DNA of 64,000 bases from Candidatus Undinarchaeota archaeon (GTDB lineage: Archaea; SpSt-1190; JASMDC01), in contig CAZFHY010000013.1 in assembly GCA_964519305.1 (NCBI GenBank), positions 32,001-96,000 of the forward strand, written 5' to 3'. Shown in pieces: positions 28,319 to 56,685 of this stretch. Position 1 is the first letter of the stretch, and each line of letters begins with the position of its first letter. The notes beneath the pieces were generated by a model. The model saw nothing but the letters and a program-made list of their open reading frames with translations. It did no database searches and was not told the DNA's origin. The translations under genes and the position numbers were made by a program.

Positions 28319-28326
28319 AGCGATCC

Positions 28327-28760: not shown

Positions 28761-28799
28761 CGGGAAAATGGCCATATTGTGTATCCTAAAGGGTGCCGA

Positions 28800-35855: not shown

Positions 35856-36377
35856 CTAGCGCTCCGCCTCCAGTCGTTCGCCGCCCGTGCAGTAGGAAGA
35901 TCCCCCAAGATGCTGGAGCAGGCTCAACCTGTCCAAACCTGGATCGGCGTGCATGGCGACTACCTCGGCCACGAAGATCGTGTGGTCTCCCGCAGGGTGG
36001 GCCGCCGTCACTCTACACTCCACAGCAGCAGGACAGCTATCCAGAATGAGTGTGTCGACCTCATCACCCGTTCGTCCGGTGAGCCCGAGACTTGCGAGCT
36101 TGTCACCTGAGCGACCGCTTGTACAACCTGCTGTGTGGACCTCCGTCAGGAGGTCCTTTCCGGGCACGTTGAGGATGAACTCACCCTCACGCTCGACGAG
36201 CGAATGGGTGTGACGCTCAGGAGCGATGCTCACCGCTAGGAGCGGAGGTCGTACTGACACAGGCATAACCCATGCTGCGGGCATGGTGTCATGACGTTCA
36301 TTCTCCCGGTCCCGGGCGGTGACGAGCACCACGGGAGGTGCCGGAAGCAGGGTGCGATAAGCGGTGACGGAGGGCAT
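35856..36377 (-). CDS. flavin reductase (flavoredoxin) family protein
   Basis: PVVLVT, MPAAW..PVS..PP, SGR..DK and GDHTIFVAEV. Confidence 0.85.
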   Translation of the reverse strand: MPSVTAYRTLLPAPPVVLVTARDRENERHDTMPAAWVMPVSVRPPLLAVSIAPERHTHSLVEREGEFILNVPGKDLLTEVHTAGCTSGRSGDKLASLGLTGRTGDEVDTLILDSCPAAVECRVTAAHPAGDHTIFVAEVVAMHADPGLDRLSLLQHLGGSSYCTGGERLEAER

Positions 36378-36424
36378 GGCCCTTCAGGTCTTCAAGAGAG
36401 ATAAAAAGATATCCTCTGTCCCCC

Positions 36425-36931
36425 TCACTTCCCATCGTACACGATCTCTGAACCGAGGCAGCGCTTGTACTCCTTGAGGATTATGTAGGTGTGCTCGTTG
36501 TTGATCCCCTCAATCTTGAATATCTCGTTGCTCAGGAAGGAGTTCAGGTCCTCCTGGTCCTTGAATATCCCGTGTACCATGAGGTTGAAATTACCTGACA
36601 CCGAGTACATGAGGGTCACCTGGGGAAGCACTTTGAGTCTGTTGGTGACAGCCTCCACCATGCTGGGGGATATGTTCAGACCGAAGATGACCGTGATGTT
36701 CTTCCCAAACTTCTTCGGATCGATGGCAGTGATGAAGCCAGTGATATATCCTTCCTCTCTGAGTCGTTTCACACGTGTACCCACAGTGACCGAGGATATT
36801 CCGATCTCCTGTCCGATCTTGCGGAACGACTTTCGAGCATCATTGTAGAGATGGGTGAGAATCCTCTTGTCGATCGAGTCGATACCGATCGACGGGTCCA
36901 TTCTTGCTTGGACACGCTTTTTGGTTTGCAT
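36425..36931 (-). CDS. Lrp/AsnC-family transcriptional regulator
   Basis: IDKRIL..L..DAR....IG..IGIS..TV..RVKRL...G.I HTH followed by a RAM domain. Divergent from the hdr operon. Start may be 36901. Confidence 0.88.
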   Translation of the reverse strand: MQTKKRVQARMDPSIGIDSIDKRILTHLYNDARKSFRKIGQEIGISSVTVGTRVKRLREEGYITGFITAIDPKKFGKNITVIFGLNISPSMVEAVTNRLKVLPQVTLMYSVSGNFNLMVHGIFKDQEDLNSFLSNEIFKIEGINNEHTYIILKEYKRCLGSEIVYDGK

Positions 36932-37125
36932 TGGAATGATGAACCATCCGTTCGCTTAAAACACTTCGCATTTTCAGCCTTTCATCTTTCCAAATAAAAA
37001 CGCGATTTGAATACCTCTGAAGGCTACTAATTCTCCCTCGAAAAAAAATCGAAAAACCACCCATAAATAGTAAAAAACCTGTTTTTCAATTGTTAGTAGA
37101 ATTCTGTTGTTGATTTAGGATTTCT

Positions 37126-37147
37126 AAGAAAATTGGCCAAATTTCTT
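37126..37147. promoter_or_regulatory. 22-bp near-perfect palindrome in the AT-rich lrp/hdrA divergent promoter
   Basis: AAGAAAATTGGCCAAATTTCTT, with one mismatched pair. Confidence 0.45.
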
Positions 37148-37242
37148 TGTAGTTATGCGGTGTTTTCCCCTCATTAACAAACCTTAAAAGTCTGCTCTCG
37201 TTGGGCGAACACATCATGCCGGAAAGGCAGGGGTCTGATTCC

Positions 37243-39198
37243 ATGAAGATTGGCGTCTATATTTGTGACTGTGGAATAAATATCGGGGCAACGGTGGACG
37301 TACCCGCCGTTGTTGAGTTCGCAAAGACGTTGCCCAACGTCATTGTCGCTCGGGAGAACAAGTACACGTGCTCGGATCCGGGTCAGGAGACGATCAGGAA
37401 GGATATCAAGGAGCTCGGTGTGGACCGAATTGTGGTAGCTGCGTGCTCCCCTCGGATGCACGAGCCGACCTACCGGAACGTGCTGAAGGATTGCGGTCTG
37501 AGCCCCCATCTCCTTGAGATGGCCAACATCCGGGAGCAGTGTTCCTGGGTGCACAAGGACAGGGCTGTCGGGACACCGAAGGCGAAGCAAATCGTCGCCG
37601 GTTCGGTCGCGCGAGCTGCGCTCCTTGAACCGCTCGAGTACCTAGAGGTCCCAACCATCCCCTCCGTGCTCGTGATCGGGGGCGGTATAGCGGGAATCCA
37701 GGCGGCACTCGATAGCGCTGACAAGGGATTCAAGACCTACCTTGTCGAGAAGGATCCCAGCATCGGCGGAAAGATGGCCCAGCTGGACAAGACATTCCCC
37801 ACCATGGACTGTTCCGCGTGCATCCTCACCCCGAAGATGGTGGACGTGGCTAGGCATCCCAACATCGAACTAATCACCTACGCGGAGATCGAAGAGGTCT
37901 CCGGTTTCATCGGTAACTTCAAGGTGAAGGTCAAGAAGAAGACCCGGTTCGTCGACATAGAGAAGTGCAACGGTTGCGGTGAGTGCGCCGCAAACTGCCG
38001 TATGAAAGACCGCATCCCTAACGAGTTCGACGCCAACCTCGGCAAGCGGAGCGCGATCTACGTACCGTTCCCACAGGCAGTCCCGTTGAGGATGACGATC
38101 GATCCGGAGAAGTGCCTCATGCTCACTCTCGGCAAGTGCGGGAAGGGCCCCCTGTGCCAGGAGGCTTGCGACCGTGGTGCGATCGACTTCGAGCAGAAAG
38201 AGGAGATCGTGGAGCTGGACATCGGCTCCATCATCGTTGCCACCGGTTTCGACCTATTCGATGCGAAGAGGAAGCCCAACTACGGCTATGGGACGTCCCC
38301 GCGCGTCATCACCGGCCTTGAGTTCGAGCGCATAGTCTCGGCCTCCGGCCCTTCCGGCGGTCACATCGAGATCGACGGCAAGGAACCGAAGAACGTGGCG
38401 TTCATCCAGTGCGTAGGTTCACGTGACAAGGAGACGAACGAGTACTGTTCGCGAGTCTGTTGCATGTACACGGCCAAACACGCCCACATGGTCCGGGACA
38501 AGCTCCCTGACTCCAACGTCATCGTGTACAATACAGATGTCCGCGCTTTCGGGAAGGGTTTCGAGGAGTTCTATAACAGGGTCAAGGACGAAGGCGTCGA
38601 GTACCGGCGACGGGAGCTCGATCAGAGCATCGAGGTCACCCCTGAGGGGGATTCCGTGATCGTGAAGGCCGAGGGACACCCCGACTTCGCCGCCGATCTG
38701 GTCGTGCTGGCCACGGCCATCGAGCCGAGGCTGGACTCGAAGGAGCTGAAGAACCAGCTGAAGATCTCATGCAGCCCGGACACGTTCCTCTTAGAGGCGC
38801 ACCCGAAGCTGCGCCCCATCGACACGTTCACAGATGGCATATTCCTAGCCGGGTGCTGCCAGGGGCCCAAGGACATCCCTGACGCTGTTGCCCAGGCGAG
38901 CGGTGCCGCCGTGCGTGCCTGTATCCCCCTCGCTCAGGGGAAGGTCAGCGTGGAGCCTATCTTCGCTGCTATCGACGATGACTCATGCTCGGGATGCCGG
39001 GTATGTGAGAGCCTGTGCCCCTATGGCGCCCTGGAGTTCGATGCCGAGGAGAAGACCATGAAGATCCAGCAGGTACTCTGCAAGGGATGCGGGACCTGTG
39101 GTGCGGCCTGTCCCTCGGGTTCGATTACCATGAGCCATTTCAGTGACAGCCAGCTGATCGCGCAGCTTGTGGCCATCATCAAGAGCGGAGGTGCTTAA
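37243..39198 (+). CDS. hdrA: heterodisulfide reductase subunit A (intact)
   Basis: [36 protein letters not shown], inserted ferredoxin, [21 protein letters not shown] and a C-terminal ferredoxin. Confidence 0.95.
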
Positions 39199-39200
39199 TC

Positions 39201-40544
39201 ATGAGGATTGGTGTATACGTTTGCGAGTGCGGTATCAACATCGCCGCCACCGTCGATGTGGAGAAGGTGGCGAAGGCCGCAGAGAGCCTGCCCGGCGTGA
39301 AGATCTCACGGTACTACAAGTACATGTGCTCGGACCCGGGCCAGGACATGATCAAGAAGGACATCAAGGAGCTCAAGCTCGACCGCGTCGTCGTGGCGTC
39401 CTGCTCTCCCTTGATGCACGAACCTACCTTCCGAACTGCCTGTGAAGAGGCGGGCCTCAACAAGTACTGCTTCGAGATGGCCAACATCAGGGAGCAGTGC
39501 TCATGGGTGCACAAGGACAAGGAGAAGGGGACCGAGAAGGCCCTCGCCATCGTCCGAGCGTCCGTAGCTAAGGCCGCTCTCCTCCAGGCCATGGACGAGA
39601 AGCAGGTCCCTGTGACGAAGAAGGCGATGGTGATCGGCGGCGGTATCGCCGGTATCCAGACCGCGCTGGACATCGCCGACATGGGCTTCCCCGTGACCCT
39701 GGTGGAGCGCGAGCCCAGCGTAGGTGGGCACATGGCCCAGCTGGACAAGACATTCCCCACCCTGGACTGCTCTGCATGCATCCTGACCCCCAAGATGGTC
39801 GACGTGGGAAGGCATCCCAACATCGAGCTCCTGACCTTCGCCGAGGTCGAGGAGATCGACGGCTTCGTAGGTAACTTCAACGTCAAGGTCAGGAAGAAGG
39901 CTAAGTCCATCGACACGGAGAAATGCACGAGCTGCGGTGAGTGCATGATCAACTGCTTGGTCCGGTACCTCCCCCAACCCCAAGAGGTCCCGAGCATCCG
40001 TGACTCCATCGATGAGGACACCCTCAAGAAATACGATGCAGTCATCAGCAAGCACGAGGGCGGCGCCCTCATTCCGGTCCTACAGGACATCAACGCGACG
40101 TTCAACTACCTGCCTGCGGACGCCCTTGCCTGCGTTGCAGAGAAGCTGGAGCTCCCGCTGAGCCAGGTGTTCCACGTGGCGACCTTCTACACGGCCTTCA
40201 GCTTGGAGCCGCGCGGTGAGCACCTCATCAAGGTCTGCCTCGGCACTGCCTGTCACGTGCGGGGTGGCCATGGGGTCCTGGACGAGATCGTGCGACAGCT
40301 CGGTATCCAGCCCGGTGAGACCACCGAGGACAAGAAGTTCACACTGGAAACGGTCAACTGTCTCGGTTGCTGTGCCCTCGGCCCAGTGGTCGTTATCGAT
40401 GACCAGTACTACCCGACGTCCCCCAGGAAGGTGGGCGCACTGCTCAATGAGTACCGGACCACGGGAGGGGCCGGGATCAAGCCGGTCGCCCCCCCTGAGC
40501 AAACACTTGAGGAGCTGACGGAAACGGGAGGTGGACGAATATGA
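39201..40544 (+). CDS. fusion: HdrA N-terminal half + NuoE/HydC [2Fe-2S] domain
   Basis: About aa 1-252 are collinear with HdrA up to [11 protein letters not shown]. Then follow LIPVLQ...[19 protein letters not shown] and CLGCC. Confidence 0.9.
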
Positions 40545-42394
40545 CGAAGCTCGCTAACGTCAAGGATCTAGAGGCGCTTAGTAAAGAGGTCGCTGCCACA
40601 AAGGACCCGAAGAAGCGCAGCATCATCGTATCAGGCGGTACCTGCGGTCGCGCCTTCGGTGGGGACGAACTGGTCGCCTCCGTAAAGAAGGAGCTCGAAG
40701 CACAGGGCCTTAAGGACAAGATCGACCTCAGGGTCACCGGTTGCCTTGGTTTCTGTGAGAGAGAGCCCATCATGCTGATCCTCCCTGAGAGGATATTCTA
40801 CCCCCAGCCTGCCCCGAAGGACGTGGCCGAGATCATCACCGAGACCGTGGTCAACGGGAAGGTGATCGACCGGCTCCTGTTCACCGATCCCGCCACTGGC
40901 GAGAAGGTCGTGCAGGCACCGGAGGTACCCTTCTACAAGAAGCAGGAAAAGAACGTCTTCGGCAGGAACGATAAGATCGATCCCACGAGCATCACCGACT
41001 ACATCGGTATCGGAGGGTACGGCTCCCTGGCCAAGGCCCTCTCGTCCATGAAACCCGAACAGGTCATCGGCACTATCAAGAAGTCGGGCCTGCGCGGGAG
41101 GGGTGGTGCTGGTTTCCCCACAGGGAAGAAGTGGGAGTTCTGTCGGAACGCACCCGGTGATTACAAGTACATCATCTGCAACGCCGACGAGGGAGATCCC
41201 GGTGCCTTCATGGACCGGAGCATCCTGGAAGGTAATCCGAACAGTGTCCTTGAGGGGATGCTCATCGGAGCGTTCGCCATCGGTGCCAACAAGGGCATCA
41301 TCTATGTGCGGGACGAGTACCCGCTGGCCGTCGAGCGACTCGAGAACGCTATCAAGCAGGCGAAGGAGCTCGGGCTCATGGGCAAGAACATCCTCGGCTC
41401 CGGGTTCGATTTCGAGATCGAGATCCACCGCGGTGCCGGTGCCTTCGTTTGCGGCGAGGAGACATCTCTCATCGCCTCCCTTGAGAACCGTGCGGGCGAG
41501 CCGCGCCAGCGGCCCCCCTTCCCCGTTACCAAGGGTCTGTGGGGCAAGCCCACCAACATCAACAACGTGAAGACCTGGGCCAATGTCCCCCTTATCATAG
41601 ACAAGGGTGCCGACTGGTTCGCCGGTATCGGTACAGAGGGGAGCAAAGGAACCATGATCTTCTCCCTGGTAGGCAAGGTCAACAACACGGGATTGGTCGA
41701 GGTCCCCATGGGGATCACTCTCCGGGAGATGGTCTACGACCTCGGTGGCGGTATCAAGGACGGTAAGGCGTTCAAGGCCGTACAGATCGGCGGGCCTTCA
41801 GGTGGCTGTATCCCAGCGGACCTGCTCGACCTACCGATCGACTACGAGCGCCTCACAGAGGCCGGCGCCATGATGGGCTCCGGCGGTATGATCGTCATGG
41901 ACGAGACCACCTGTATGGTGGACGTGGCCAAGTACTTCCTCAACTTCCTCAAGGGGGAGTCGTGCGGTAAGTGCACGCCGTGCAGGGAGGGGGTCATGCA
42001 GATGCACAAGATCATCAGTGACATCTGCGACGGCAATGGGAGCATGGAGGACCTCAAGCTCCTCGAAGAGCTCGCTGCCTTCATCAAGGACGCGTCGCTC
42101 TGTGCTCTAGGGAGGACCGCGCCGAATCCGGTCCTGACCACGACCCGGTTCTTCATGGATGAGTACAAGGCCCACATCGAGAACAAGAAGTGCCCCGCGG
42201 GCGTGTGCAAGGCGCTGATCAGCTACAATATCAATGCCGAAGCGTGCACGGGTTGTACCCTGTGCGCGACACAGTGCCCACAAGAGGCCATCACTGGCGA
42301 TAAGAAAGCAGCGCATACCATCGATTCGAAGAAGTGCATCAAGTGCGGCATCTGCAAGGATGTGTGCAACTTCGGTGCGGTGAGGGTCGACTAG
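40541..42394 (+). CDS. nuoF: NuoF/HydB-like FMN NADH-binding subunit
   Basis: [43 protein letters not shown] and [12 protein letters not shown]; C-terminal 2[4Fe-4S]. Confidence 0.93.
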
Positions 42395-42397
42395 GAG

Positions 42398-44173
42398 GTG
42401 ATGATGATGGTAACATTCACTATTGACGGAGAAAAGGTCGAAGCTGACGAAGGTATGACGGTGCTAGAGTTCGCCCAGAAGCAGGGTATCGAGATTCCGA
42501 CCCTGTGCTACCACAAGGCGCTCGAGCCCTACGGTGGTTGCCGGTTGTGCCTCGTGGAGGTCACCGATAACGGACGGACGAGCCTCATGGCCTCGTGCAG
42601 CTACCTGATCAAGGACGGTATCGAGATCAAGACCGCATCCGACCGGGTCATCACGACCCGCAAGATGGTCATGGAGCTGTTGCTGGCGCGCTGTCCGAAC
42701 TCGGACGATGTCAAGGCCCTGGCCAAGGAGATGGGCGTCGACGGGACGCGGTTCGCTATCAACGAGAACAAGGACGAGAAGTGCGTCCTGTGCGGCCTGT
42801 GCGTGCGCATCTGCAAGGACGTGATGGGGCTCGGCGTGACGGGCTTCGTGAACCGCGGATACAAGCGTGATAAGACCACACCTTTCGGCGAGCTATCCAA
42901 GCTCTGCATGACCTGCGGCGCGTGCACCTTCGTGTGCCCGACGGACGCCTTCGGATTGGACGAGATCACATCGACCGCGCCCAAGCCGATCAAGTTCGAG
43001 TTCGAGGAGGGGCTGGTCAACCGACCTGCGGTGTACATCCCCTTCCCCCAGGCCGTCCCCAAGATCCCCGTGATCGACAAGGAGCGCTGTGCGTACTACA
43101 CCACCGGGCAGTGCAAGGCCTGCGAGAAGTTCTGCGAGCAGGATGCGATCGTGTACGACCAGGAGGACGAGGTCGTCGACCGGGACGTGGGCGCCATCGT
43201 GGTGGCCACCGGGTTTGACATGTTCGATCCCGCGAAGACGCCCCAGTACGGCTACGGGACGTCCGCCCGCATCATCACTGGCCTGGAGTTCGAGCGTTAC
43301 ACCAACGCCTCGGGCCCCACCGGCGGTAAGATCAAGATCGATGGTAAGGAACCGAAGAAGGTCGCCTTCATCTCGTGCGTCGGCTCGCGCGACAGAGAAG
43401 GCCATGAGTACTGTTCCAGGATCTGCTGCATGTACACGGCAAAACATGCGCACATGGTCAGGGACAAGCTCCCCGGCTCCGAGGTCACGGTGTACTTCAC
43501 CGATATGCGCGCCTTTGGAAAGGGCTTTGAGGAGTTCTATAACAGGGTCAAGGAAGAGGGCGTCGAGTACCGACGACGGGAGCTCGAGGAAGACATCCAG
43601 ATCATCCCGAAGGGCAACGGCGTCGTTGTCAAGTCTGCCGGTCACCCGGACCTCGATGTGGACCTTGTTGTGCTCGCGACGGCAGTGGAACCTCGAGGGG
43701 ACACGGGTGCCGTCCGAAGCCTCCTGAAGGTATCCTCCAGCATGGACGGATTCCTCCTGGAAGCCCACCCCAAGCTGCGACCCATCGACACCCACACTGA
43801 CGGCATATTCCTGGCCGGTTGCTGCCAGGCACCAAGGGACGTCCCCGACACCGTGGCCCAGGCGAGCGGTGCGGCCTCGAGGGTCACATCGCTGCTGTCG
43901 AGGGAGAACCTCTCCATCGACGCCATCGTGTCGTTCGTCAATGAGAAGCAGTGCCGCGGATGCGGATTCTGCGTCGAGGTGTGCCCTTACGGGGCCATCG
44001 AGCTCGTGACCAAGGACCTGGCCGGGCGCGAGGTCATGATCGCCTCGGTGAACGAGGCGCTGTGCAAGGGCTGTGGCTCATGCGCGGCCGCCTGTCTGTC
44101 CGGTGCGATGCAACAGAAGGGCTTCACGGACGAGCAGCTGCTTGATGCTCTTGACGGACTGGTGGGGGGGTGA
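42398..44173 (+). CDS. fusion: NuoG/HydA-like N-terminal Fe-S domain + HdrA C-terminal half
   Basis: IPTLC..GGCRLC..SC, CVLCGLC and CMTCGAC, then YIPFPQAVP, ATG, LEFER, CSRICCMY, HPKLRP, GIFLAGC and a terminal ferredoxin. Start among 42398-42407. Confidence 0.9.
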   Translation: MMMMVTFTIDGEKVEADEGMTVLEFAQKQGIEIPTLCYHKALEPYGGCRLCLVEVTDNGRTSLMASCSYLIKDGIEIKTASDRVITTRKMVMELLLARCPNSDDVKALAKEMGVDGTRFAINENKDEKCVLCGLCVRICKDVMGLGVTGFVNRGYKRDKTTPFGELSKLCMTCGACTFVCPTDAFGLDEITSTAPKPIKFEFEEGLVNRPAVYIPFPQAVPKIPVIDKERCAYYTTGQCKACEKFCEQDAIVYDQEDEVVDRDVGAIVVATGFDMFDPAKTPQYGYGTSARIITGLEFERYTNASGPTGGKIKIDGKEPKKVAFISCVGSRDREGHEYCSRICCMYTAKHAHMVRDKLPGSEVTVYFTDMRAFGKGFEEFYNRVKEEGVEYRRRELEEDIQIIPKGNGVVVKSAGHPDLDVDLVVLATAVEPRGDTGAVRSLLKVSSSMDGFLLEAHPKLRPIDTHTDGIFLAGCCQAPRDVPDTVAQASGAASRVTSLLSRENLSIDAIVSFVNEKQCRGCGFCVEVCPYGAIELVTKDLAGREVMIASVNEALCKGCGSCAAACLSGAMQQKGFTDEQLLDALDGLVGG

Positions 44174-44178
44174 GGACC

Positions 44179-44604
44179 ATGGCAGATGATACTTTCGAAC
44201 CGAACATCGTAGCGTTCCTGTGCAACTGGTGCTCGTATACGGGTGCCGACCTAGCGGGGACCAGCAGGATCCAGTACCCGCCCAACGTGAAGGTCGTGCG
44301 GGTCATGTGCAGCGGCCGGGTGAATCCCATGCTCGTCGTCCACGCTCTTCAGCAGGGTGCGGACGGTGTGCTCATATCAGGATGTCACCCCGGCGACTGC
44401 CACTACACACAGGGCAACTACTTCGCCCGCAGGAGGATGAAGCTCATGACGAGCCTTCTGGAGTACGTGGGCATCGATCCCAAGCGGGTTCAGATGTCCT
44501 GGGTCTCCGCTTCCGAGGGGCAGAAGTTCGCTGACGTGATCACAAAGGTCACCGAGGACGTGCGGACGCTCGGACCGAACACCGAGTTCCCGAGGGAGGT
44601 GTGA
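44179..44604 (+). CDS. mvhD: MvhD/FlxD [2Fe-2S] subunit
   Basis: CNWCSY.GAD.AG, MCSGR and GCHPGDCHY. Confidence 0.92.
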   Translation: MADDTFEPNIVAFLCNWCSYTGADLAGTSRIQYPPNVKVVRVMCSGRVNPMLVVHALQQGADGVLISGCHPGDCHYTQGNYFARRRMKLMTSLLEYVGIDPKRVQMSWVSASEGQKFADVITKVTEDVRTLGPNTEFPREV

Positions 44605-44606
44605 AG

Positions 44607-45551
44607 ATGGACGAGGAAAAGATGCGTTCGACCGCCCGCGATCTACTGAGCAAGGGAGAGGTCAAGTACGTTATCGGATACGAACAGGCCGGCTTTGGAC
44701 AAAAGGTGCGGCCCTGCATCATCACGAAACCCGAGGAGACCGACAAGCTAGTGCTCTCGCCCATGTGCAAGAACAACCTCGCTGTCTATCTCACGCTCGA
44801 GCCGCCCGAAGAGAAGGGTAAGATCGCCGTTATCGCTAAGGGTTGCGATGCCCGCGCACTGGTCCAGCTCATCCAGGAGCGGGGCTTCGAGCGAGATAAC
44901 CTGGTCATACTGGGCGTTCCCTGCCCGGGCATGATCGATCCGGACAAGCTCTATGAAGAGGTCCTCGAGGAGGACATCGTCGGGATCTCCGAGTCAAGCG
45001 ACACGTTCATCATAAGTACGAAGGGCGGCGAGCGCACCTTCAAGAAGGCGGACGTGATCTTCGATGAGTGCGGTCACTGTGCTCATCCCACTCCGCTCAT
45101 CGCCGATAAAATGCTCGGCGAGGTCATCGAAAGTGGTGCCTTGGAGCTGACCGATCCTACAAAGGACATGTCGCCTGGAGAGCGATGGGCCTACTGGTCG
45201 GAAAAGTTCGAGACGTGCATCCGGTGCTATGCCTGCAGGCAGGCATGCCCGCTCTGCTTCTGTGAGGAGTGCGCCGCCGACTCGCTCCGACCCAACTGGG
45301 TCCGACGGTCAGTGAACCGCTCAGAGAATGCGGCATGGCATTTCATGCGCGCCTTCCATCATGCAGGGCGGTGCTCGGAGTGTGGCGAGTGCGAGCGTGT
45401 GTGTCCTGTTGGGCTCCCTCTCATGGTCCTCAACAAGATGCTCGCTCAAGAGGCCAAGGATGTCTTCGACTACACGGCCGGTACTGACGCTGATGGAAAG
45501 CCGCTCTTGACATCATTCGAGACCGATGACAAGGAGGACTTTATCCTGTAG
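44607..45551 (+). CDS. FlxC-like 4Fe-4S protein
   Basis: KGCD.RA, CIRCYACRQACPLCFC and H.AGRC..CGECERVCP. Confidence 0.8.
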   Translation: MDEEKMRSTARDLLSKGEVKYVIGYEQAGFGQKVRPCIITKPEETDKLVLSPMCKNNLAVYLTLEPPEEKGKIAVIAKGCDARALVQLIQERGFERDNLVILGVPCPGMIDPDKLYEEVLEEDIVGISESSDTFIISTKGGERTFKKADVIFDECGHCAHPTPLIADKMLGEVIESGALELTDPTKDMSPGERWAYWSEKFETCIRCYACRQACPLCFCEECAADSLRPNWVRRSVNRSENAAWHFMRAFHHAGRCSECGECERVCPVGLPLMVLNKMLAQEAKDVFDYTAGTDADGKPLLTSFETDDKEDFIL

Positions 45552-45560
45552 GTGATCATC

Positions 45561-46559
45561 ATGGACGCGATACTCAATAAGGACAATCTCGACGAGCTCA
45601 TCACCAAGCTGGGGTACGAGGTGCTCGCACCCGTCAAGAAGGACAAGACCGTGTCCTTCGAGACGGTCAAGAAAGCCTCGGACATCGCCTGGGGGTCCGC
45701 GAACACCGCGGTGCCCCCCAAGCGACTGTTCTTCCCTCAGACCGAAGAGCTTTTCACCTACGATGGCGATGAGATCACCGACCGGGCGCCCAAGCCGGAG
45801 AAGCGGCTCGTGCTCGGTATCCGGCCCTGCGACGCCCGCAGCTTCGCCATCCTGGACCCGCTCTTCACCAAGGACTTCAACGATCCCTACTACAAGAACA
45901 GGAGGGACAACACGGTGCTCGTGGGCCTTGCATGCACGGCCCCCGGAAGGAACTGTTTCTGCACTTCGCTAGGAGCGGGACCATTCGACACCAAGGGTCT
46001 TGACCTGCTCCTGGTGGACCTCGGGGACAAGTTCCTCGTTCGCTCCGCTTCCGAGAAGGGTGAGAAGTTCCTTGCAGAGAACAAGAGCCTCTTCGGTGAG
46101 GCCGGCAACGATGCCGCGGCCGCCGATGAGCTCAAGGCGAAGGCCGAAGGTATGATGCACCGCACGATCGATGTCTCCACGCTTCCCACGAAGCTGAAGA
46201 CGCTGTTCGACGACCCGATCTGGGACGACCTTGCACAGACATGTGTTGGTTGTTATGCGTGCACCTACCTCTGCCCCACCTGCCACTGCTTCGATATCCA
46301 GGACGAGGTCCGGGGCAAGAAGGGACGACGTATCCGTATCTGGGACAGCTGTGTCAATCCCGAGTACACCCTTCACGCCTCAGGGTACAACCCCCGACCC
46401 GGACGGACGAACCGGATGAGGAACCGGATCCTGCACAAGTACCAGTACTACCCGGAGAACTTCGACGTTATCGCATGTGTGGGTTGTGGACGATGTATCG
46501 ACCACTGCCCGGTGAGCAATGACCTAGTTGAGTTCCTGGGAAAGATAGGAGGGAAGTGA
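45561..46559 (+). CDS. FlxB/AsrA-like 4Fe-4S protein
   Basis: K..FFPQ.E, RPCD, CFC, CVGCYAC..LCPTCHC, WDSC and CVGCGRC...CP. Confidence 0.85.
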   Translation: MDAILNKDNLDELITKLGYEVLAPVKKDKTVSFETVKKASDIAWGSANTAVPPKRLFFPQTEELFTYDGDEITDRAPKPEKRLVLGIRPCDARSFAILDPLFTKDFNDPYYKNRRDNTVLVGLACTAPGRNCFCTSLGAGPFDTKGLDLLLVDLGDKFLVRSASEKGEKFLAENKSLFGEAGNDAAAADELKAKAEGMMHRTIDVSTLPTKLKTLFDDPIWDDLAQTCVGCYACTYLCPTCHCFDIQDEVRGKKGRRIRIWDSCVNPEYTLHASGYNPRPGRTNRMRNRILHKYQYYPENFDVIACVGCGRCIDHCPVSNDLVEFLGKIGGK

Positions 46560-46560
46560 A

Positions 46561-47397
46561 ATGGAGAATCCCTACGTACCCATCTCCTCCACAATCGTGA
46601 ACCTGAAGGAGGAGGTCAAGGGCGAGCGCGCCATTACGACATTCAGGACAGAGTTCAAGGACAAGAAGCTTGCAGAAAGCTTCGACTTCATACCTGGCCA
46701 GTGCGCCATGGTCACCCTTCTGGGGAAAGGGGAGTGCTTCTTTGCCATCTCCTCCTCACCCACAAAGAAGGGGTACCTGGAGTTCAGCGTCATGAAGCTG
46801 GGCAAGGTGACCGACGCCCTCCACGAACTGGAGATCGACGATGTCCTTGGCGTCCGCGGGCCCTACGGGAACGGCTTCCCTGTTGACGAGTGGAAGGGCA
46901 AGAACATCCTCTGCATCGGGGGAGGTATCGGCCAGGCGCCACTGAGGTCGCTCATCCAGTATGTGATGGACAACCGGAAGGATTTCGGGAAGCTGGACGT
47001 GATCTACGGAGCACGTTCTACTGCCGACCTGTGCTACATGGACGAGTTCGAGGAGATGGAGGCACGCGATGATGTCGACGTCCATCTCTCCATCGACAAG
47101 GCCGAGGATGGCTGGAAGCGGTTCGTCGGGTTCGTCCCCGACAACCTCAAGCGCCTCGCGCCCTCGCCGAAGGACACAATCGCCATCACCTGCGGGCCAC
47201 CGATTATGATCAAGTTCGTGATCCAGGCCTTGGAAGGGCTCGGGTTCACCCCCGACCAGATATTCACGACCCTTGAGATGCGCATGAAGTGCGGTATCGG
47301 CAAGTGCGGCCGGTGCAACATCGGCAGCCTCTATGTATGCAAGGACGGTCCCGTGTTCTCATGGGAGGTCCTCAAGGACGTCAAGGGGGAGATGTGA
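46561..47397 (+). CDS. FlxA/AsrB-like FAD/NAD(P)-binding [2Fe-2S] subunit
   Basis: PGQ, RGPYGNGF, GGGIG.APL, CGPP.M and MKCGIGKCGRC...VC.DGPVF. Confidence 0.88.
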   Translation: MENPYVPISSTIVNLKEEVKGERAITTFRTEFKDKKLAESFDFIPGQCAMVTLLGKGECFFAISSSPTKKGYLEFSVMKLGKVTDALHELEIDDVLGVRGPYGNGFPVDEWKGKNILCIGGGIGQAPLRSLIQYVMDNRKDFGKLDVIYGARSTADLCYMDEFEEMEARDDVDVHLSIDKAEDGWKRFVGFVPDNLKRLAPSPKDTIAITCGPPIMIKFVIQALEGLGFTPDQIFTTLEMRMKCGIGKCGRCNIGSLYVCKDGPVFSWEVLKDVKGEM

Positions 47398-47402
47398 TCA
47401 CA

Positions 47403-47825
47403 ATGGCTAACGATTCATTCGAACCGGAGATCGTCGGGATCCTGTGCAACTGGTGCACCTACGCGGGGGCTGACCTCGCCGGGACCAGCAGGTTGGAGTA
47501 CCCGCCGAACATCAAGTCCATCCGTGTGATGTGCACCGGCAGGGTCGATCCCATGTTCGTGGTCAAGTCGCTGAAGGAGGGCGCCGACGGCGTGTTCATC
47601 AGCGGGTGCCACCTGGGCGACTGTCATTACCAGTCGGGCAACTACAAGTCGGTGAGGAGGATCGTTCTCCTCACTAGGATGCTGGAAGAAATGGGCATCA
47701 GTGCCGACCGCGTTGCCTTCGAGCACATCTCGGCGTCTGAGGGACAGAAGTTCGCCGACAGGGTTACCGAGTTCACCAACAGGCTCAAGGAGCTTGGTCC
47801 CAATCCCCTTAAGGAGGTCGAGTAA
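47403..47825 (+). CDS. mvhD: MvhD hydrogenase delta subunit
   Basis: CNWCTYAGAD, MCTGR and GCHLGDCHY. Confidence 0.92.
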   Translation: MANDSFEPEIVGILCNWCTYAGADLAGTSRLEYPPNIKSIRVMCTGRVDPMFVVKSLKEGADGVFISGCHLGDCHYQSGNYKSVRRIVLLTRMLEEMGISADRVAFEHISASEGQKFADRVTEFTNRLKELGPNPLKEVE

Positions 47826-47826
47826 G

Positions 47827-48840
47827 ATGGCCGAGAAGCTTAAAGTTGCATTTCACTGGCTCGCGTCCTGCGGTGGCTGCGAGGTCGCCGTGGTGGACCT
47901 GGACGAGAAGATCCTGGACGTTATCAAGGTCCTGGACATCCTGTTCTGGCCCGTGGCCCTGGACGGTAAGTACGAGGACATCAAGGCGATGCCCGACAAG
48001 TACCTGGACATCGCCATCATCAACGGCGCCGTCCGCACTACCGAGCAGGAAGAGCACGCCAAGCTCTTCCGCGCCAAGGCCAAGGTAGTCGTGTCCTTTG
48101 GTTCCTGTGCGTGTTTCGGCGGCGTACCCGCCCTGGCCAACCTGACCACAAAGGAGAAGATCCTGCAGACCGCGTACGAGACCACCGTGTCCACTGACAA
48201 CCCCAAGAAAACACGCCCCCAGCTGGAGACGAAGATGAACGGCCGTACGCTGGAGCTGCCGGACCTGTACGAGTCGGTGAAGGCACTGCACCAGGTCATC
48301 GACGTGGACTACTTCCTGCCCGGCTGCCCGCCCATGGTGCCTCTCATCGAGAAGCTCGTGGCCGTGGCCGCTAACTTCGCCGAGACCGGCGAGCTCCCGC
48401 CCAAGGGAGCGGTAATCGCTGGCGAGAAGACCCTGTGCGACGAGTGTCCGCTGGAGCGTAAGGAGAAGATGGTCGCCGGTATCGAGCGCCCTCATACCTT
48501 CGCGCCGCCCGATCCCGAGCGGTGCCTGCTGGAGCAGGGTCTCATCTGTATGGGGCCCGCCACACGCGACGGTTGTGACAGCCAGTGCATCAAGGCGAAC
48601 ATGCCCTGCCGGGGCTGCATGGGCCCCCCGCCGAAGGTGGATGACCAGGGCCTTAAGATGCTCTCCGCGCTTGCGTCCATCATGGGTGTCGAGAACGAGA
48701 CTGAGATGTCCCGCCAGGACCTCGAGGAGTTCATGAAGACGGTGCCCGATCCTTGGGGTACATTCTACCGCTTCGGTATGTCCACAGCGACGCTCAACAA
48801 GTCACTTGAGGGCGAGAAGCGAGAAACGGAGGAGAAATAA
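47827..48840 (+). CDS. mvhG: [NiFe] hydrogenase small subunit (group 3c)
   Basis: ASCGGC, GSCA..GG, PGCPP, CDEC and C.GP.T..GC...C...PCRGC. Confidence 0.92.
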   Translation: MAEKLKVAFHWLASCGGCEVAVVDLDEKILDVIKVLDILFWPVALDGKYEDIKAMPDKYLDIAIINGAVRTTEQEEHAKLFRAKAKVVVSFGSCACFGGVPALANLTTKEKILQTAYETTVSTDNPKKTRPQLETKMNGRTLELPDLYESVKALHQVIDVDYFLPGCPPMVPLIEKLVAVAANFAETGELPPKGAVIAGEKTLCDECPLERKEKMVAGIERPHTFAPPDPERCLLEQGLICMGPATRDGCDSQCIKANMPCRGCMGPPPKVDDQGLKMLSALASIMGVENETEMSRQDLEEFMKTVPDPWGTFYRFGMSTATLNKSLEGEKRETEEK

Positions 48841-50334
48841 ATGGCAGACGACCTTTCAGAGAAGGCGAAGAAGGAGCGCCGGTTGACAATAGACCCGATT
48901 ACGCGCCTTGAGGGGCACGGCAAGATCGAAATCTTCCTTGACGATAAAGGCGATGTCGAGAACGCGGTCCTACAGGTGCCCGAGCTCAGGGGTTTCGAGC
49001 AGTTCGCTGTTGGACGTCCCGGTGAGGAGATGCCCCGCATCACGCCACGTATCTGTGGCGTGTGCCCCATCGCGCACCACTTCGCCTCCACAAAGGCGCT
49101 GGACGCATGCTACAACGTGAAGCCCACTTCGGCTGCATTGAAGCTGCGAGAGCTTATGTACTCCGGGGCCTACCTCTACGACCACACCCTGCACTTCTAT
49201 TTCCTTGGGGGGCCCGACTTCGTCGTCGGCCCCACTGCCCCGAAGATGGAGCGCAACATCCTAGGTGTCATCGGCAAGGTCGGCCTGGACATAGCCGGCG
49301 AGGTCATCAAGCACCGTGCCTACGGCCAGAAGATACAGGCCATGCTCGGTGGTAAGGCCACTCACCCCGTGTGTGGTCTACCTGGCGGCGTGTCCAAGGG
49401 CCTGAACGAGGAAGAGGTCGAAGAGATTAAGCAGATGGCCGATTCCTCCGTTGAGTTCGCCAAGTTCAGCCTACAGATCTTCAACGACGTCGTGCTGAAG
49501 AACAAAACCTATGTGGACATCATCCTGGGGGACACCTACACGTTCCCGACCTACTACATGGGTCTGGTGGACGAGAACAACAAGGTGAACTTCTACGACG
49601 GAAAGGTCCGCGTGGTCGATCCCGAGGGCAAGGAGTACGTCAAGTTCGAGGAAAAGGACTATCTCGACCATGTGGCCGAGCACGTCGAGCCGTGGTCGTA
49701 CTGCAAGATGCCCTTCCTCAAGAACATAGGCTGGAAGGGGCTCACTACAGGCAAGGACTCGGGCATCTACCGCGTAGCGCCGCTGGCGCGGCTCAACGCC
49801 GCTGACGGCATGGCCACACCGCTGGCTCAGGAGGCCTACGACCAGATGTACGAGATCCTTGGTGGCAAGCCGGTGCACTCCACTCTGGCATTCCACTGGG
49901 CACGGCTCATCGAGCTGCTGTACGCCTGTGAACGACTCCAGGAGCTGGCGAACGATCCGGAAATCCTCTCGGACGACATCCGTGCCGAACCGGGAGAGCC
50001 CGGAGAGGGCGTCGGTGTGATCGAAGCCTGTCGCGGTACGCTGTTCCACCATTACAAGCTGGACGATAAGGGCATGATCGAGAAGGCCAACCTCATCGTG
50101 GCCACGGTGAATAACTATGCCGCGATCAACGTCACCGTCAAGCAGGCCGCGTCCTCGCTCATCCACAACTTCCAGGTGGACGAGGGCATCCTGAACATGG
50201 TGGAGATGGCCTTCCGTGCGTACGATCCGTGCTTCGGGTGCGCCACCCACACCCTCCCGGGGCAGATGCCCATGGAGGTCAACCTCCGCACGCGCGGAGG
50301 GGACGTGTTCAAGCGGTTCAGTCGGGGGATCTAA
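48841..50334 (+). CDS. mvhA: [NiFe] hydrogenase large subunit (group 3c)
   Basis: TRLEGH, RICGVC and RAYDPCFGCATH with a cleavable C-terminal extension. Confidence 0.95.
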   Translation: MADDLSEKAKKERRLTIDPITRLEGHGKIEIFLDDKGDVENAVLQVPELRGFEQFAVGRPGEEMPRITPRICGVCPIAHHFASTKALDACYNVKPTSAALKLRELMYSGAYLYDHTLHFYFLGGPDFVVGPTAPKMERNILGVIGKVGLDIAGEVIKHRAYGQKIQAMLGGKATHPVCGLPGGVSKGLNEEEVEEIKQMADSSVEFAKFSLQIFNDVVLKNKTYVDIILGDTYTFPTYYMGLVDENNKVNFYDGKVRVVDPEGKEYVKFEEKDYLDHVAEHVEPWSYCKMPFLKNIGWKGLTTGKDSGIYRVAPLARLNAADGMATPLAQEAYDQMYEILGGKPVHSTLAFHWARLIELLYACERLQELANDPEILSDDIRAEPGEPGEGVGVIEACRGTLFHHYKLDDKGMIEKANLIVATVNNYAAINVTVKQAASSLIHNFQVDEGILNMVEMAFRAYDPCFGCATHTLPGQMPMEVNLRTRGGDVFKRFSRGI

Positions 50335-50360
50335 TCCCCCGGCCACCGCCGGCCGCACGC

Positions 50361-50921
50361 ATGCCTCGACGTACGCTCCTGCTGGGACTGGGCAATCCCC
50401 TTCTCAGTGATGACGCTGTCGGGCTGGTTCTGGCCCGAAAGGTGTACAGGGCGCTCGCAGCCCATCACGGGCTAGGTCCTGCAGGTCTTGAGCATGAACC
50501 ACCACTCGGGGAGCTGGACCTGCCGGCGCCCGAGCTGACGCTCCCCAACGGGGATGTGGTGGGGCTCGCCGAGGCCGCTATATCAGGTATCGCAGTGCTC
50601 GATGTCGCTTGCGGCTGGGACCTGCTGGTGCTGATGGATTCCATCAAGACCGTTGGCGGAAAACCAGGTATGGTGATGCGACTTGGGCTCGAAGCCTTTC
50701 AGGATACTGTGCGCACGGCATCACCGCACGACCTGAACTTAGCCTCGGCTCTCGAGTTCGGTGCCAAACAGGGATTCGACGTCCCCGATGAGTTCGTGAT
50801 CTACGCCATCGAAGCGGTGGACGTGCTCACCTTCAACGAAGGATTGTCACCCCAGGTCGAGAACGCCCTGGATGGGGCGGTGGACCAGATACTGCGCGAG
50901 CAGTTCAACGTGGACGGCTGA
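50361..50921 (+). CDS. hydrogenase maturation endopeptidase
   Basis: LGLGNPLLSDDAVG, DS...G..PG and SPH. Confidence 0.9.
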   Translation: MPRRTLLLGLGNPLLSDDAVGLVLARKVYRALAAHHGLGPAGLEHEPPLGELDLPAPELTLPNGDVVGLAEAAISGIAVLDVACGWDLLVLMDSIKTVGGKPGMVMRLGLEAFQDTVRTASPHDLNLASALEFGAKQGFDVPDEFVIYAIEAVDVLTFNEGLSPQVENALDGAVDQILREQFNVDG

Positions 50922-51570: not shown

Positions 51571-52503
51571 TCATTGTATCGACGGAACACTCTTCCTGAA
51601 CGGCGGCTCGTCAATCCCCCGTGGCCCGTGGTACAGTTCGCTCAGCTCCAACATTGTCAAGAGCCGCACCCACATCGTCGTGATCTCCCGTGTAATCGGG
51701 TGCTCGGGTACATGCTCCACCACGGCCTTCTCAGCTACCATGGCCTCGGTGACAACGTTGTCGTAGGGGAGCTCACCCACGACCATGACATCGTTCTCTT
51801 TGGCCCATTCCTTGAGCTCACATGTTATGTCCGGATTAAGGTCGCTCTTGTTGATGCACAGGGCGGGAGTGATGCTGAAGTGCCGGGCGACCCCCACCAC
51901 CCGCTGGACGTCGTGTAGCCCTGAGCGTGTGGGCTCGGCCACCGCGAGCACGAGGTCGGTGTTGGCGATGGCAGCGATGACTGCGCACCCGATGCCCGGC
52001 GGGCCGTCGATGATGGCCAGCGCCTTGTCGCTTGCCTCCGCCAACGCCCTGGTCTTGGCGCGCACCCGGGACACGAGCTTCCCACCGGCCTCTTCTCCAA
52101 TGTTGAGCCTAGCATGGACCATCGCGCTATGTCGTGTGTCGGAGACATACACCTCGCCAGTGTCCGCGTCCTCCATGGCGATGGCGCCATCCGGGCACAC
52201 GACCACGCATACGCCGCACCCCTCGCACGCGTACGGATCGATGACCAACTCGCGGATGGCGTTGAAGCGGCATGCCTCCTCACAGATTCCACATCTCGTG
52301 CACTTCTTGGTATCCATCACGGCCTTCCTCGAGCCGGAGAAGTCCTCCTTCTCCCGAACGGTGGGGCTAAGGATGAGGTGGAGGTCGGCCGCGTCCACGT
52401 CGCAGTCAGCCAGTAAGGCGCTCCGGGCAAGGGCCGCAAAGGAGGCCGTGACGCTCGTCTTGCCCGTGCCGCCCTTCCCGCTGACGACCGCGAGCTGCTT
52501 CAT
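51571..52503 (-). CDS. MinD-superfamily P-loop ATPase with inserted ferredoxin (COG1149)
   Basis: SGKGGTGKT, DCDVDA, two CxxCxxCxxxC motifs, DGPPGIGC and EPT.SG.HD. Confidence 0.9.
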   Translation of the reverse strand: MKQLAVVSGKGGTGKTSVTASFAALARSALLADCDVDAADLHLILSPTVREKEDFSGSRKAVMDTKKCTRCGICEEACRFNAIRELVIDPYACEGCGVCVVVCPDGAIAMEDADTGEVYVSDTRHSAMVHARLNIGEEAGGKLVSRVRAKTRALAEASDKALAIIDGPPGIGCAVIAAIANTDLVLAVAEPTRSGLHDVQRVVGVARHFSITPALCINKSDLNPDITCELKEWAKENDVMVVGELPYDNVVTEAMVAEKAVVEHVPEHPITREITTMWVRLLTMLELSELYHGPRGIDEPPFRKSVPSIQ

Positions 52504-53201
52504 GCCCTCGCCTCCACGAACACGTCCTCCACGGCAGCCCCCCAGTCGCGTCTTCCTCCGCCCTGGCTCACCGATGCAAGCAAGGTGCCTCTGTCGACAA
52601 CATGCACCCCAGCGATGGCATCCGCCCCATACTCGAAGAGCACGGGGGAGAGGGGAGTTGTGGGGCCGATGACCAGTGTGTAGCCTCCCGACCACGTGAG
52701 CACGTCCTCCAGGGTATGGTTCACCACAGCGGTCCCGCTCAAGACCACAAGGTCGCAGTCAGGCAGCATGTCCTCCTCAGCGCTCATGGGTAGTTGGCCC
52801 CCCGCAGGCATCGCCTCGAACACCAGGGGCCATACACCATGGGCGTTGAGCCTTCGCACGAGCGGCTTGAAGTCGCCCACGATACCGATGCGCTTGGCGT
52901 TGTCGGCCAGCTCTACGATATGGTCGAACACGTTCAACCGACGTCCCGTCATAGGAGGCAGGCATGCGTTTAGGCTGGCAGCGCCGATGGCCGCCTCCAC
53001 TAGGTTGTCCGAGCGGACCAGGGGAATCAGGTCCCTGCCCACCAGTCTCCCCACGGCCGTAGGGGTGTTCCGGTGACCGGGGAATGTGTGGGCCAGCCCC
53101 GTGCGTCCGTTCACCGTCACGGCGGTATACTTGATCCCAACACAGATATCATGTGCGACCCCGCCATTGGCAGTTGCTATCACATCGTCGATGAGCGTCA
53201 C
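52500..53201 (-). CDS. DUF364 family Rossmann-like protein
   Basis: AIG.A..NA, IVG.F.P, LSGT.VVN.T and IGPTTPL...LF..G. Confidence 0.8.
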   Translation of the reverse strand: MTLIDDVIATANGGVAHDICVGIKYTAVTVNGRTGLAHTFPGHRNTPTAVGRLVGRDLIPLVRSDNLVEAAIGAASLNACLPPMTGRRLNVFDHIVELADNAKRIGIVGDFKPLVRRLNAHGVWPLVFEAMPAGGQLPMSAEEDMLPDCDLVVLSGTAVVNHTLEDVLTWSGGYTLVIGPTTPLSPVLFEYGADAIAGVHVVDRGTLLASVSQGGGRRDWGAAVEDVFVEARA

Positions 53202-54040: not shown

Positions 54041-54145
54041 ACACAATCACCCTGAGTGAGCACGATGGAGCCCGGCCCCATGTACATGTCGAACGGCCCT
54101 ACCCCTGACAGGCCTGTCCTTCTGAGGCTCGGGATGCTCGCAGCA

Positions 54146-56642: not shown

Positions 56643-56685
56643 TAATATCGCTCAAGTAACGCGCATTCCAAACCGGAGGGATTTT

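Follow-up and report, generated by a model that had tools for sequence, protein, structure and literature searches.

A candidate HdrBC-independent operon with a predicted Bfu-type core set into HdrA in an Undinarchaeota archaeon

To our knowledge, HdrA-based bifurcation is understood almost only together with HdrBC and with a disulfide as the high-potential sink. In Mvh-Hdr an MvhD adaptor carries electrons to an HdrA flavin, and the same is proposed for Flx-Hdr; the FlxABCD-HdrABC family was reportedly defined by Ramos et al. in 2015 (a study cited in PMC6687939 and PMC7015854). What HdrA does in the many non-methanogens without a disulfide substrate is a question that bears on the locus described here. 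It consists of twelve co-directional open reading frames (ORFs; g1 to g12) at 37243-50921 on the forward strand of a 64,000-nucleotide stretch (the window) of contig CAZFHY010000013.1, from the genome of a Candidatus Undinarchaeota archaeon. Domain content and order were read from the ORF translations, Pfam and NCBIfam. A canonical hdrA (g1) is followed by a second HdrA (HdrA') divided between g2 and g4, with g3 in between, then by flxDCBA (g5-g8), mvhDGA (g9-g11) and a protease gene (g12).

The nearest characterised analogue is class II benzoyl-CoA reductase, BamBCDEFGHI ('Bam-Bfu'), which is wired differently. According to the relevant sections of two sources (preprint 10.64898/2026.04.10.717634; PMC9304861), Bam holds in one complex a HydBC/Bfu-type NADH and ferredoxin module (BamGHI), the MvhD-like BamF and the HdrA-type BamE, each with a counterpart in the operon. 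Those of the preprint describe HydBC-type confurcating and HdrA-type bifurcating modules that provide two energy-coupling sites in series. The operon lacks the tungsten-pterin subunit BamB, BamC and the HdrBC-like outlet BamD, which Bam keeps, and adds a hydrogenase and a Flx module. In the main-text sections of Schut et al. 2022 (PMC9304861) that were covered, Bam-Bfu is the only Hdr-linked type of the Bfu family (BfuABC). Compared with the family as described there, the operon has its BfuA and BfuC each fused to part of an HdrA.

Two other known systems share parts with the operon. With MvhAGD-HdrABC it has in common MvhA, MvhG, MvhD and a canonical HdrA, but it lacks HdrB and HdrC, its genome has no McrA match, and a Bfu-interrupted HdrA and a Flx module are added. 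With FlxABCD-HdrABC it shares flxD-flxC-flxB-flxA behind hdrA, an order kept in 67 of 80 related loci; however, hdrC and hdrB do not lie beside its hdrA, which is otherwise so in only one of 61 informative loci.

The nearest described domain architecture is the NfnB-like insertion in HdrA of ANME-1 anaerobic methanotrophic archaea. As set out in part of Chadwick et al. 2022 (PMC9012536), these HdrA paralogs carry the insertion in the ferredoxin domain and are encoded next to another HdrA, like HdrA' of the operon. A Hadarchaeota locus found in this study (L016) likewise combines a potentially bifurcating, NAD(P)H-linked insert with MvhD-FlxCBA and MvhDGA. In contrast to both, the insert of the operon is of Bfu type (FMN, NuoEF-type) rather than NfnB/GltD type, and the coding sequence is divided among three reading frames. 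The literature, taken without supplements and the review of Appel et al. 2021, yielded no account of an HdrA divided by a NuoEF/Bfu core. The portions consulted of PMC5736913, PMC7325909, PMC9723677, PMC7886697, PMC11237513, PMC12054007 and preprint 10.1101/2024.09.26.615249 make no mention of a Bfu-split HdrA.

The most informative new facts are the predicted Bfu identity of the core together with its position in HdrA', and an apparent module swap relative to a sister species. By homology, the C-terminal part of g2, g3 and the N-terminal part of g4 together make up a Bfu-type bifurcating core (HydC/HydB/N-terminal HydA-like), because over its whole length g3 matches only bifurcating chains of the HydB/NfnB/StnB type. 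Residues 28-614 of g3 align with residues 8-594 of NiFe-HydB (7t2r_B, 811 bits), and the matches to FeFe-HydB, NfnB of NfnABC and StnB are also full-length; complex I NuoF chains reach only residues ~140-550. The extra domains of g3 are, at the N-terminus, a thioredoxin-like [2Fe-2S] domain and, at the C-terminus, a 2x[4Fe-4S] ferredoxin domain, with cysteine motifs visible at both ends. The hallmark domains of BfuB are thus found in g3, and the BfuC and BfuA partners are present as fused domains rather than free subunits. In g2, residues 2-254 correspond to HdrA residues 5-258 (5odc_A, 353 bits) and residues 274-422 to HydC (8a6t_C, 151 bits). In g4, residues 5-184 match a NuoG-like 247-residue chain (9mqx_A, 141 bits) and residues 202-586 match HdrA residues 272-650 (8rvu_a, 388 bits). 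The original prediction, made from the window alone, had read this part as a split hdrA/nuoEFG. It was right that NuoEF-like genes split an HdrA, but the NuoEF part is of Bfu type and only the N-terminal part of NuoG is there.

We read the split site from an alignment of g1, g2, g4 and two Hadarchaeota HdrAs, which places the Bfu core inside the inserted ferredoxin domain of HdrA', spread over three genes. The HdrA part of g2 (residues ~1-255) is the N-terminal third of the protein and g4 supplies the other two thirds. At the cut, g2 retains the first cysteine motif of the inserted ferredoxin domain and a degenerate YLPQPQEVP before NuoE begins. Past its HoxU-like clusters, g4 picks up at YIPFPQAVP and C-x7-C-x2-C-x3-C and continues through the remaining HdrA. 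In methanogen HdrA, this inserted domain passes low-potential electrons to ferredoxin (parts of PMC9012536 and of preprint 10.64898/2026.04.10.717634). In the alignment both g1 and HdrA' keep the N-terminal domain, the DCSAC cysteines and all cluster motifs. The first protein, g1, has the N-terminal, TrxR-like FAD, inserted ferredoxin and C-terminal ferredoxin domains and aligns nearly end to end with methanogen HdrA chains (8rvu_a, 785 bits over residues 10-660; 5odc_A, 778 bits).

The module swap emerges from the only same-genus genome compared (G001, 98% complete). The left flank of the window is 91% identical to this genome over 4.8 kb, up to ~35.85 kb. At locus L115 (C62:74000-93999), the sister species carries hdrC, hdrB, a tandem hdrA of 1027 residues and flxDCBA, with an adjoining flavin reductase ortholog. 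Identity to the window is 84% for flxD, 68% for flxC, 75% for flxB, 86% for flxA and 89% for the flavin reductase. The sister genome has no orthologs of g1 or g4 (its best HdrA match is 46% identical), only a 53% identical paralog of BfuB, and no MvhA match with g11 as query; conversely, tblastn found no tandem HdrA in the genome of the operon. The Flx module is therefore common to the two species by descent, with a different Hdr partner in each: hdrCB plus tandem hdrA in the sister, and in their place hdrA plus hdrA'/Bfu in the operon, with mvhDGA and the protease gene appended. Since hdrCBA-flxDCBA is the usual order elsewhere, we infer that hdrCB and the tandem hdrA were replaced in the lineage of the operon. 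Compared with the sister species, tens of kb from the shared flank to the AsnC-type regulator, upstream of the operon, are rearranged.

Scanning species genomes with g4 returned 595 relatives, of which we examined the best 80 loci. MvhD, FlxC directly after it, and FlxB follow hdrA in 67 of them. Searching with the HdrB and HdrC of the genome itself (tblastn) gave HdrB/HdrC-like hits in 60 of these 67 Flx loci, mostly directly upstream. The other seven comprise five that end at a contig edge inside hdrA, one that ends inside nuoF, and the Hadarchaeota locus L016. Leaving aside the six cut by a contig end, hdrB/C lie beside hdrA in 60 of 61 informative Flx loci and L016 is the sole exception. 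Judged by this sample, absence of hdrBC at the operon is an exception and not the rule among Flx loci. The idea that hdrA-flxDCBA without hdrBC is common in bacteria was considered and rejected, as tblastn put HdrB/HdrC just upstream in most loci.

L016 is also the closest relative of the operon's cluster among the best 80 loci (44-65% identity). Its order is protease, MvhA and MvhG on the opposite strand, then HdrA, a second HdrA of 1115 residues, MvhD, FlxC, FlxB and FlxA. The 1115-residue HdrA has an NfnB/GltD-like insert (Fer4_20 plus Pyr_redox_2) at the same site as the Bfu core. No CCG (HdrB/D) domain was matched in its genome (G061, ~1.3 Mb) by a search that was positive in 12 of 14 control genomes. 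Split HdrA'/Bfu units also occur at three other loci. A Zixibacteria locus (L017) has a full unit resembling g2, g3 and g4 after hdrC-hdrB and before mvhD...mvhG-mvhA. In a metagenome locus (L107) that order recurs, with partial matches to g2 and g4. In a Planctomycetaceae locus (L045) the unit precedes flxDCBA and the contig ends upstream. At the bacterial loci, split HdrA' is found without a canonical HdrA neighbour.

Relatives of both fusion proteins are numerous in metagenomes. A search with residues 1-300 of g4 returned at least 120 proteins, with 99-100% coverage and 51-58% identity among the matches listed; residues 150-447 of g2 also returned at least 120, with 85-95% coverage and 56-66% identity among the matches listed. 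Source names, where given, are generic ('2Fe-2S binding protein', 'NAD(P)H-dependent oxidoreductase subunit E'). The organisms, where stated, include Promethearchaeota, Heimdallarchaeaceae, Theionarchaea, Methanofastidiosia, Thermoplasmata, Methanomassiliicoccales, Anaerolineae, Cloacimonadota, KSB1 and others. Many g2 relatives have only ~290-310 residues (P0123, P0127, P0130 and others); they may be fragments from short contigs or an HdrA(N)::NuoE form without the N-terminal cluster domain. Junction-spanning matches were absent at E <= 1e-50 from 400 other archaeal species genomes, with at most five candidates scored per genome in most of those listed, and absent from the 60 relatives searched. 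A metagenome scan for split HdrA'/Bfu neighbourhoods yielded only four loci.

In a quick maximum-likelihood tree of HdrA C-terminal parts (53 rows), a clade with full support unites eight archaeal fusion proteins, g4 among them, and lies close to g1 and both Hadarchaeota HdrAs. Bacterial fusion proteins are nested in a clade of bacterial Flx-associated HdrAs, and the HdrA halves of Bfu-fused proteins fall in at least three separate clades. Monophyly of 15 fusion rows was rejected (approximately unbiased test, p-AU 1.8e-5); this group was defined by architecture after the tree was seen and leaves out the L107 row, whose ORF is fused further. The topology suggests either more than one origin of the fusion or swapping of HdrA halves with local paralogs. 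The Hadarchaeota pair, one of which bears the NfnB-like insert, are sister to each other in the tree. Insertion of NAD(P)H modules at the same HdrA site seems to have happened repeatedly.

The original prediction had also noted that HdrBC are missing, which is true of the window; the genome, however, has a canonical hdrC-hdrB-hdrA::mvhD on contig C21. A whole-genome profile search with the CCG family PF02754 gave six matches at three loci (contigs C21, C4 and C31) and none on C13, the contig of the operon. Looking for hdrB, hdrC and hdrD beyond the window therefore went against a general absence, with hdrCB on C21 and two further CCG proteins on C4 and C31. On C21, hdrC scores 161 bits (cut-off 160) and hdrB 339 bits (cut-off 345), and hdrA::mvhD adjoins them. 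The C4 protein is TfrB/LdhH-like with NapG/NapH-like neighbours, and the C31 protein is HdrD/GlpC-like with GlpA-like neighbour genes. Among the twelve operon products, Pfam and NCBIfam detected neither a CCG nor an aldehyde-oxidoreductase domain.

The host genome has 3.63 Mb in 42 contigs, is 99.83% complete with 4.29% estimated contamination, and contains an archaeal small-subunit ribosomal RNA (1508 bits). McrA (MCR_alpha) has no match in it, while the control search was positive in two methanogens. Contig C5 holds formylmethanofuran dehydrogenase (Fwd) genes, Mch and CdhC, a gene set that indicates a Wood-Ljungdahl pathway without methanogenesis. With Fwd, Mch and CdhC present and McrA not found, the archaeon would need low-potential ferredoxin and is unlikely to have CoM-S-S-CoB, the heterodisulfide. 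Four HdrAs are encoded in the genome: g1, g2+g4, and single copies on C5 and C21. The genome further has one NuoF-type gene along with two [NiFe] hydrogenases. The HdrA on C5 (L014, C5:108000-126000) is an HdrA::MvhD fusion of ~895 residues between two formylmethanofuran dehydrogenase-like gene sets (with molybdopterin, amidohydrolase and GXGXG subunits). Mch comes after them, and CdhC is found ~7 kb upstream of fwd. In this genome without detected McrA, the locus resembles a unit for Hdr-Fwd coupling. The second [NiFe] hydrogenase set lies on the contig of the operon, ~5-9 kb past the window end (C13:101207-105035). It comprises FlxB-like beta, FlxA-like gamma, small and large subunits, is 27-37% identical to g7, g8, g10 and g11, and looks like a group 3b sulfhydrogenase type.

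Our preferred reading, which we hold tentatively and at slightly less than even confidence, is that the operon encodes a soluble, HdrBC-independent system that reversibly couples H2, NAD(P)H and ferredoxin by stacking HdrA-type and Bfu-type bifurcation. Its host, by gene content, appears to be a non-methanogenic archaeon with the Wood-Ljungdahl pathway. An HdrA flavin would receive electrons from each module (H2 or NAD(P)H) through that module's own MvhD-type adaptor. The low-potential arm of HdrA' would be hard-wired to the BfuA cluster chain, and hence to the FMN/NAD(H)/ferredoxin site of BfuBC, with flow in either direction. Because of this presumed wiring of the HdrA' arm into BfuA/BfuBC, NAD(P)+ would serve as higher-potential partner instead of the heterodisulfide. 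Net turnover would follow equations like 2 H2 + Fd(ox) + NAD(P)+ <-> Fd(red) + NAD(P)H, with exchange among NADPH, NADH and ferredoxin as well, and could run towards H2 uptake or H2 release according to need. The twelve products might assemble as one supercomplex or as two sub-complexes sharing HdrA dimers. Such a scheme would fit an archaeon in which Fwd and carbon monoxide dehydrogenase/acetyl-CoA synthase (CODH/ACS) depend on reduced ferredoxin and CoM-S-S-CoB is lacking.

An HdrA/HdrA' heterodimer with one MvhD per side, as first suggested for this locus, is possible as a prediction. In ANME archaea, complementary losses suggested obligate HdrA heterodimers (in the HdrA sections of PMC9012536). 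Both HdrAs of the operon keep the N-terminal domain and DCSAC, and so are without such losses. In bacteria, moreover, the split form stands with no canonical HdrA beside it. A more far-reaching model is unlikely in our view: all twelve products would sit in one supercomplex on the HdrA/HdrA' heterodimer, with the HdrA-type FAD and the Bfu-type FMN/cluster site in series and the Bfu core on the low-potential arm of HdrA'. H2, NADH, NADPH and ferredoxin would be traded without thiol or disulfide, and the complex, a hybrid of hydrogenase and transhydrogenase, would have assumed the function of HdrBC on acquisition of the hydrogenase. Should two bifurcation sites indeed work in series, the operon would join class II benzoyl-CoA reductase as the second example of such a system, and would be the first with a link to H2.

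The operon makes a good candidate for a novel mechanism that keeps hydrogen, NAD(P)H and ferredoxin in balance. Together with the sister species and the Hadarchaeota, it offers a testable natural case in which a hydrogenase and an NAD(H)/ferredoxin Bfu core stand in place of HdrBC. Knowledge of how the enzyme works would improve annotation and redox models for the groups that bear the fusion, Asgard, Thermoplasmatota and Theionarchaea included.

The earlier idea of a system without a disulfide acceptor gains from the sister swap, from the Hadarchaeota genome without a CCG match and from the 60-of-61 rule, which makes the missing genes stand out; hdrCB on C21 leaves use in trans possible. The notion has thus gained comparative support that falls short of proof. 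The alternative is that the operon's HdrAs pass high-potential electrons in trans to HdrBC or another CCG protein from C21, C4 or C31, and that the operon only adds input modules (H2, NAD(P)H, NADH/ferredoxin) to a disulfide reductase. We consider this improbable. CCG proteins do exist at those three loci, and the C21 HdrB and HdrC score at or near the NCBI equivalog level, which makes docking in trans possible. Both g1 and g4 keep CVGSRD...YCSR(V/I)CCMY, the motif of the cluster that feeds HdrC in methanogens. In L017 and L107 hdrC-hdrB directly precede the split HdrA'/Bfu unit, so the unit is not in itself a substitute for HdrBC; they also precede hdrA in 60 of the 61 informative Flx loci. 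Each of these points weighs against HdrBC independence, as does the limit on the Hadarchaeota comparison, whose missing CCG domain holds for a genome of ~1.3 Mb with no reported completeness. On the other side, the C21 hdrCB has its own adjoining hdrA::mvhD, and the C4 and C31 proteins have NapG/NapH-like and GlpA-like neighbours of their own. The sister species suggests that hdrCB once stood at this locus and are now gone, the genome with the nearest cluster has no detected CCG domain, and CoM-S-S-CoB is not expected where McrA was not found.

The stacking of two bifurcation sites has a rival of its own, in which HdrA', and perhaps HdrA too, is a plain wire or scaffold. The operon would then encode a Type-2 Bfu enzyme with H2 (through MvhAGD) or NAD(P)H (through Flx) as third substrate, and all coupling would take place at the BfuBC FMN/cluster site. 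That g3 has every BfuB hallmark domain fits this account, as does the Bfu family's conserved BfuBC core with varied modules feeding through BfuA (as presented in parts of PMC9304861). BamE, moreover, has one FAD domain that is judged non-bifurcating in the BamE passages of preprint 10.64898/2026.04.10.717634. We nevertheless find a single site doubtful, as g4 and g2 align with bifurcating methanogen HdrA (388 and 353 bits) over all domains, with cluster motifs that appear intact. Two-site coupling faces further difficulties. The proposed wiring of Bfu into the inserted ferredoxin domain has no solved precedent. In Bam, by the account in the sections cited above, Bfu feeds the C-terminal ferredoxin domain of BamE through BamI and BamF, whereas the operon has both BfuC and BfuA fused to HdrA' within its inserted ferredoxin domain. 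Finally, the coupling of H2, NAD(P)H and ferredoxin is predicted from the genes, and the pyridine nucleotide used may be NAD(H) or NADP(H). An assembly or binning artefact, with a chimeric operon in this metagenome-assembled genome, is scarcely credible. The 42 contigs and the estimated contamination would allow it, and the queries used retrieved no orthologs of g1-g4 and MvhA from the same-genus relative. Against a chimera stand the 91% identical left flank, the flx genes 68-86% identical to those of the sister, and an even GC content of 0.59-0.61 along the operon. All sampled words of a 9.9-kb operon stretch are also contained in eight public sequencing runs from two studies, possibly the source samples.

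The layout of the operon is summarized in Table 1. With the most plausible starts (ATG codons at 37243, 47403, 47827 and 50361), junction sizes are 2, -4, 3, -4, -4, 0, 1, 5, 1, 0 and 26 bases. The near gap-free twelve-gene order from hdrA to protease that was originally described is borne out, with 26 bases as the widest gap. Tight packing of g1-g12 speaks for one transcription unit. No RNA data for co-transcription were among the 15 listed runs that hold operon sequence. The promoter presumably lies in the A+T-rich region upstream of g1; GC content is 0.53 at 36001-38000 against ~0.60 around it. Genes 3' of the operon are convergent.

Table 1. Features of the operon and its upstream region (coordinates in the window)
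Feature	Position	Strand	Basis or details
AsnC/Lrp-type regulator, divergent	36425..36931	-	Pfam AsnC_trans_reg, HTH_AsnC-type
A+T-rich intergenic region, 311 bases	36932-37242		between regulator and g1
g1, canonical full-length HdrA	37243..39198	+	NCBIfam HdrA2 model positions 1-642, 841 bits
g2, HdrA'(N)::NuoE/HydC(BfuC)-like [2Fe-2S] domain	39201..40544	+	Pfam 2Fe-2S_thioredx residues 285-418
g3, BfuB/HydB-type NAD(H)- and FMN-binding subunit	40541..42394	+	full-length HydB match
g4, BfuA/HoxU-like N-terminus (residues 1-186)::rest of HdrA'	42398..44173	+	NCBIfam HoxU 1-185, HdrA2 model positions 247-638
g5, MvhD/FlxD-type [2Fe-2S] adaptor of Flx module	44170..44604	+	Pfam FlpD 194 bits
g6, FlxC-like iron-sulfur protein	44601..45551	+	Pfam Fer4_8/Fer4_17, FrhB_FdhB_C 26 bits
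g7, FlxB-like (AsrA/sulfhydrogenase-beta family)	45552..46559	+	Pfam Fer4_22; NCBIfam ShyB 220 bits, AsrA 156 bits, both below cut-off
g8, FlxA-like FAD/NAD(P)-binding [2Fe-2S] protein (AsrB/HydG/PyrK family)	46561..47397	+	Pfam NAD_binding_1, FAD_binding_6, DHODB_Fe-S_bind
g9, second MvhD, hydrogenase-associated	47403..47825	+	Pfam FlpD 176 bits; 63% identity to g5; GGAGAT before ATG 47403
g10, MvhG/VhuG-type small subunit, group 3c [NiFe] hydrogenase	47827..48840	+	NCBIfam VhuG 212 bits; Pfam Oxidored_q6
g11, MvhA/VhuA-type large subunit	48841..50334	+	NCBIfam VhuA 443 bits; RICGVC, DPCFGCATH NiFe motifs
g12, hydrogenase maturation endopeptidase	50361..50921	+	TIGR00072 79 bits (above cut-off); Pfam HycI

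For g1, the ATG at 37243 agrees with the starts of HdrA alignments; the longest ORF begins at TTG 37201. The N-terminus of g4 carries [2Fe-2S] plus [4Fe-4S] motifs. By domain content, the Flx-type NAD(P)H module is complete (FlxA, FlxB, FlxC and FlxD), as is the group 3c [NiFe] hydrogenase with MvhA, MvhG, MvhD and protease. The scores for VhuA, VhuG and VhuD (134 and 139 bits) are each below the NCBI equivalog cut-off. A C-terminal extension of g11 is the predicted target of the maturation protease. In g6, an HdrC-type dicluster motif is visible, and its weak FrhB_FdhB_C match lies at residues 74-175.

Just 3' of the operon are four possible Fe-S maturation helpers, at 51571-52695 (-), 53198-54046 (-), 55797-56642 (+) and 56629-57102 (+). 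Two are CbiA/MinD-type P-loop proteins with 2x[4Fe-4S] motifs; the others are an Mrp/NUBPL-type iron-transfer ATPase and a NifU-like protein. Elsewhere in the window, GC content falls to 0.47 at 28001-30000, against ~0.60 in other parts, around an amino-acid permease gene at 28959-30812 (-).

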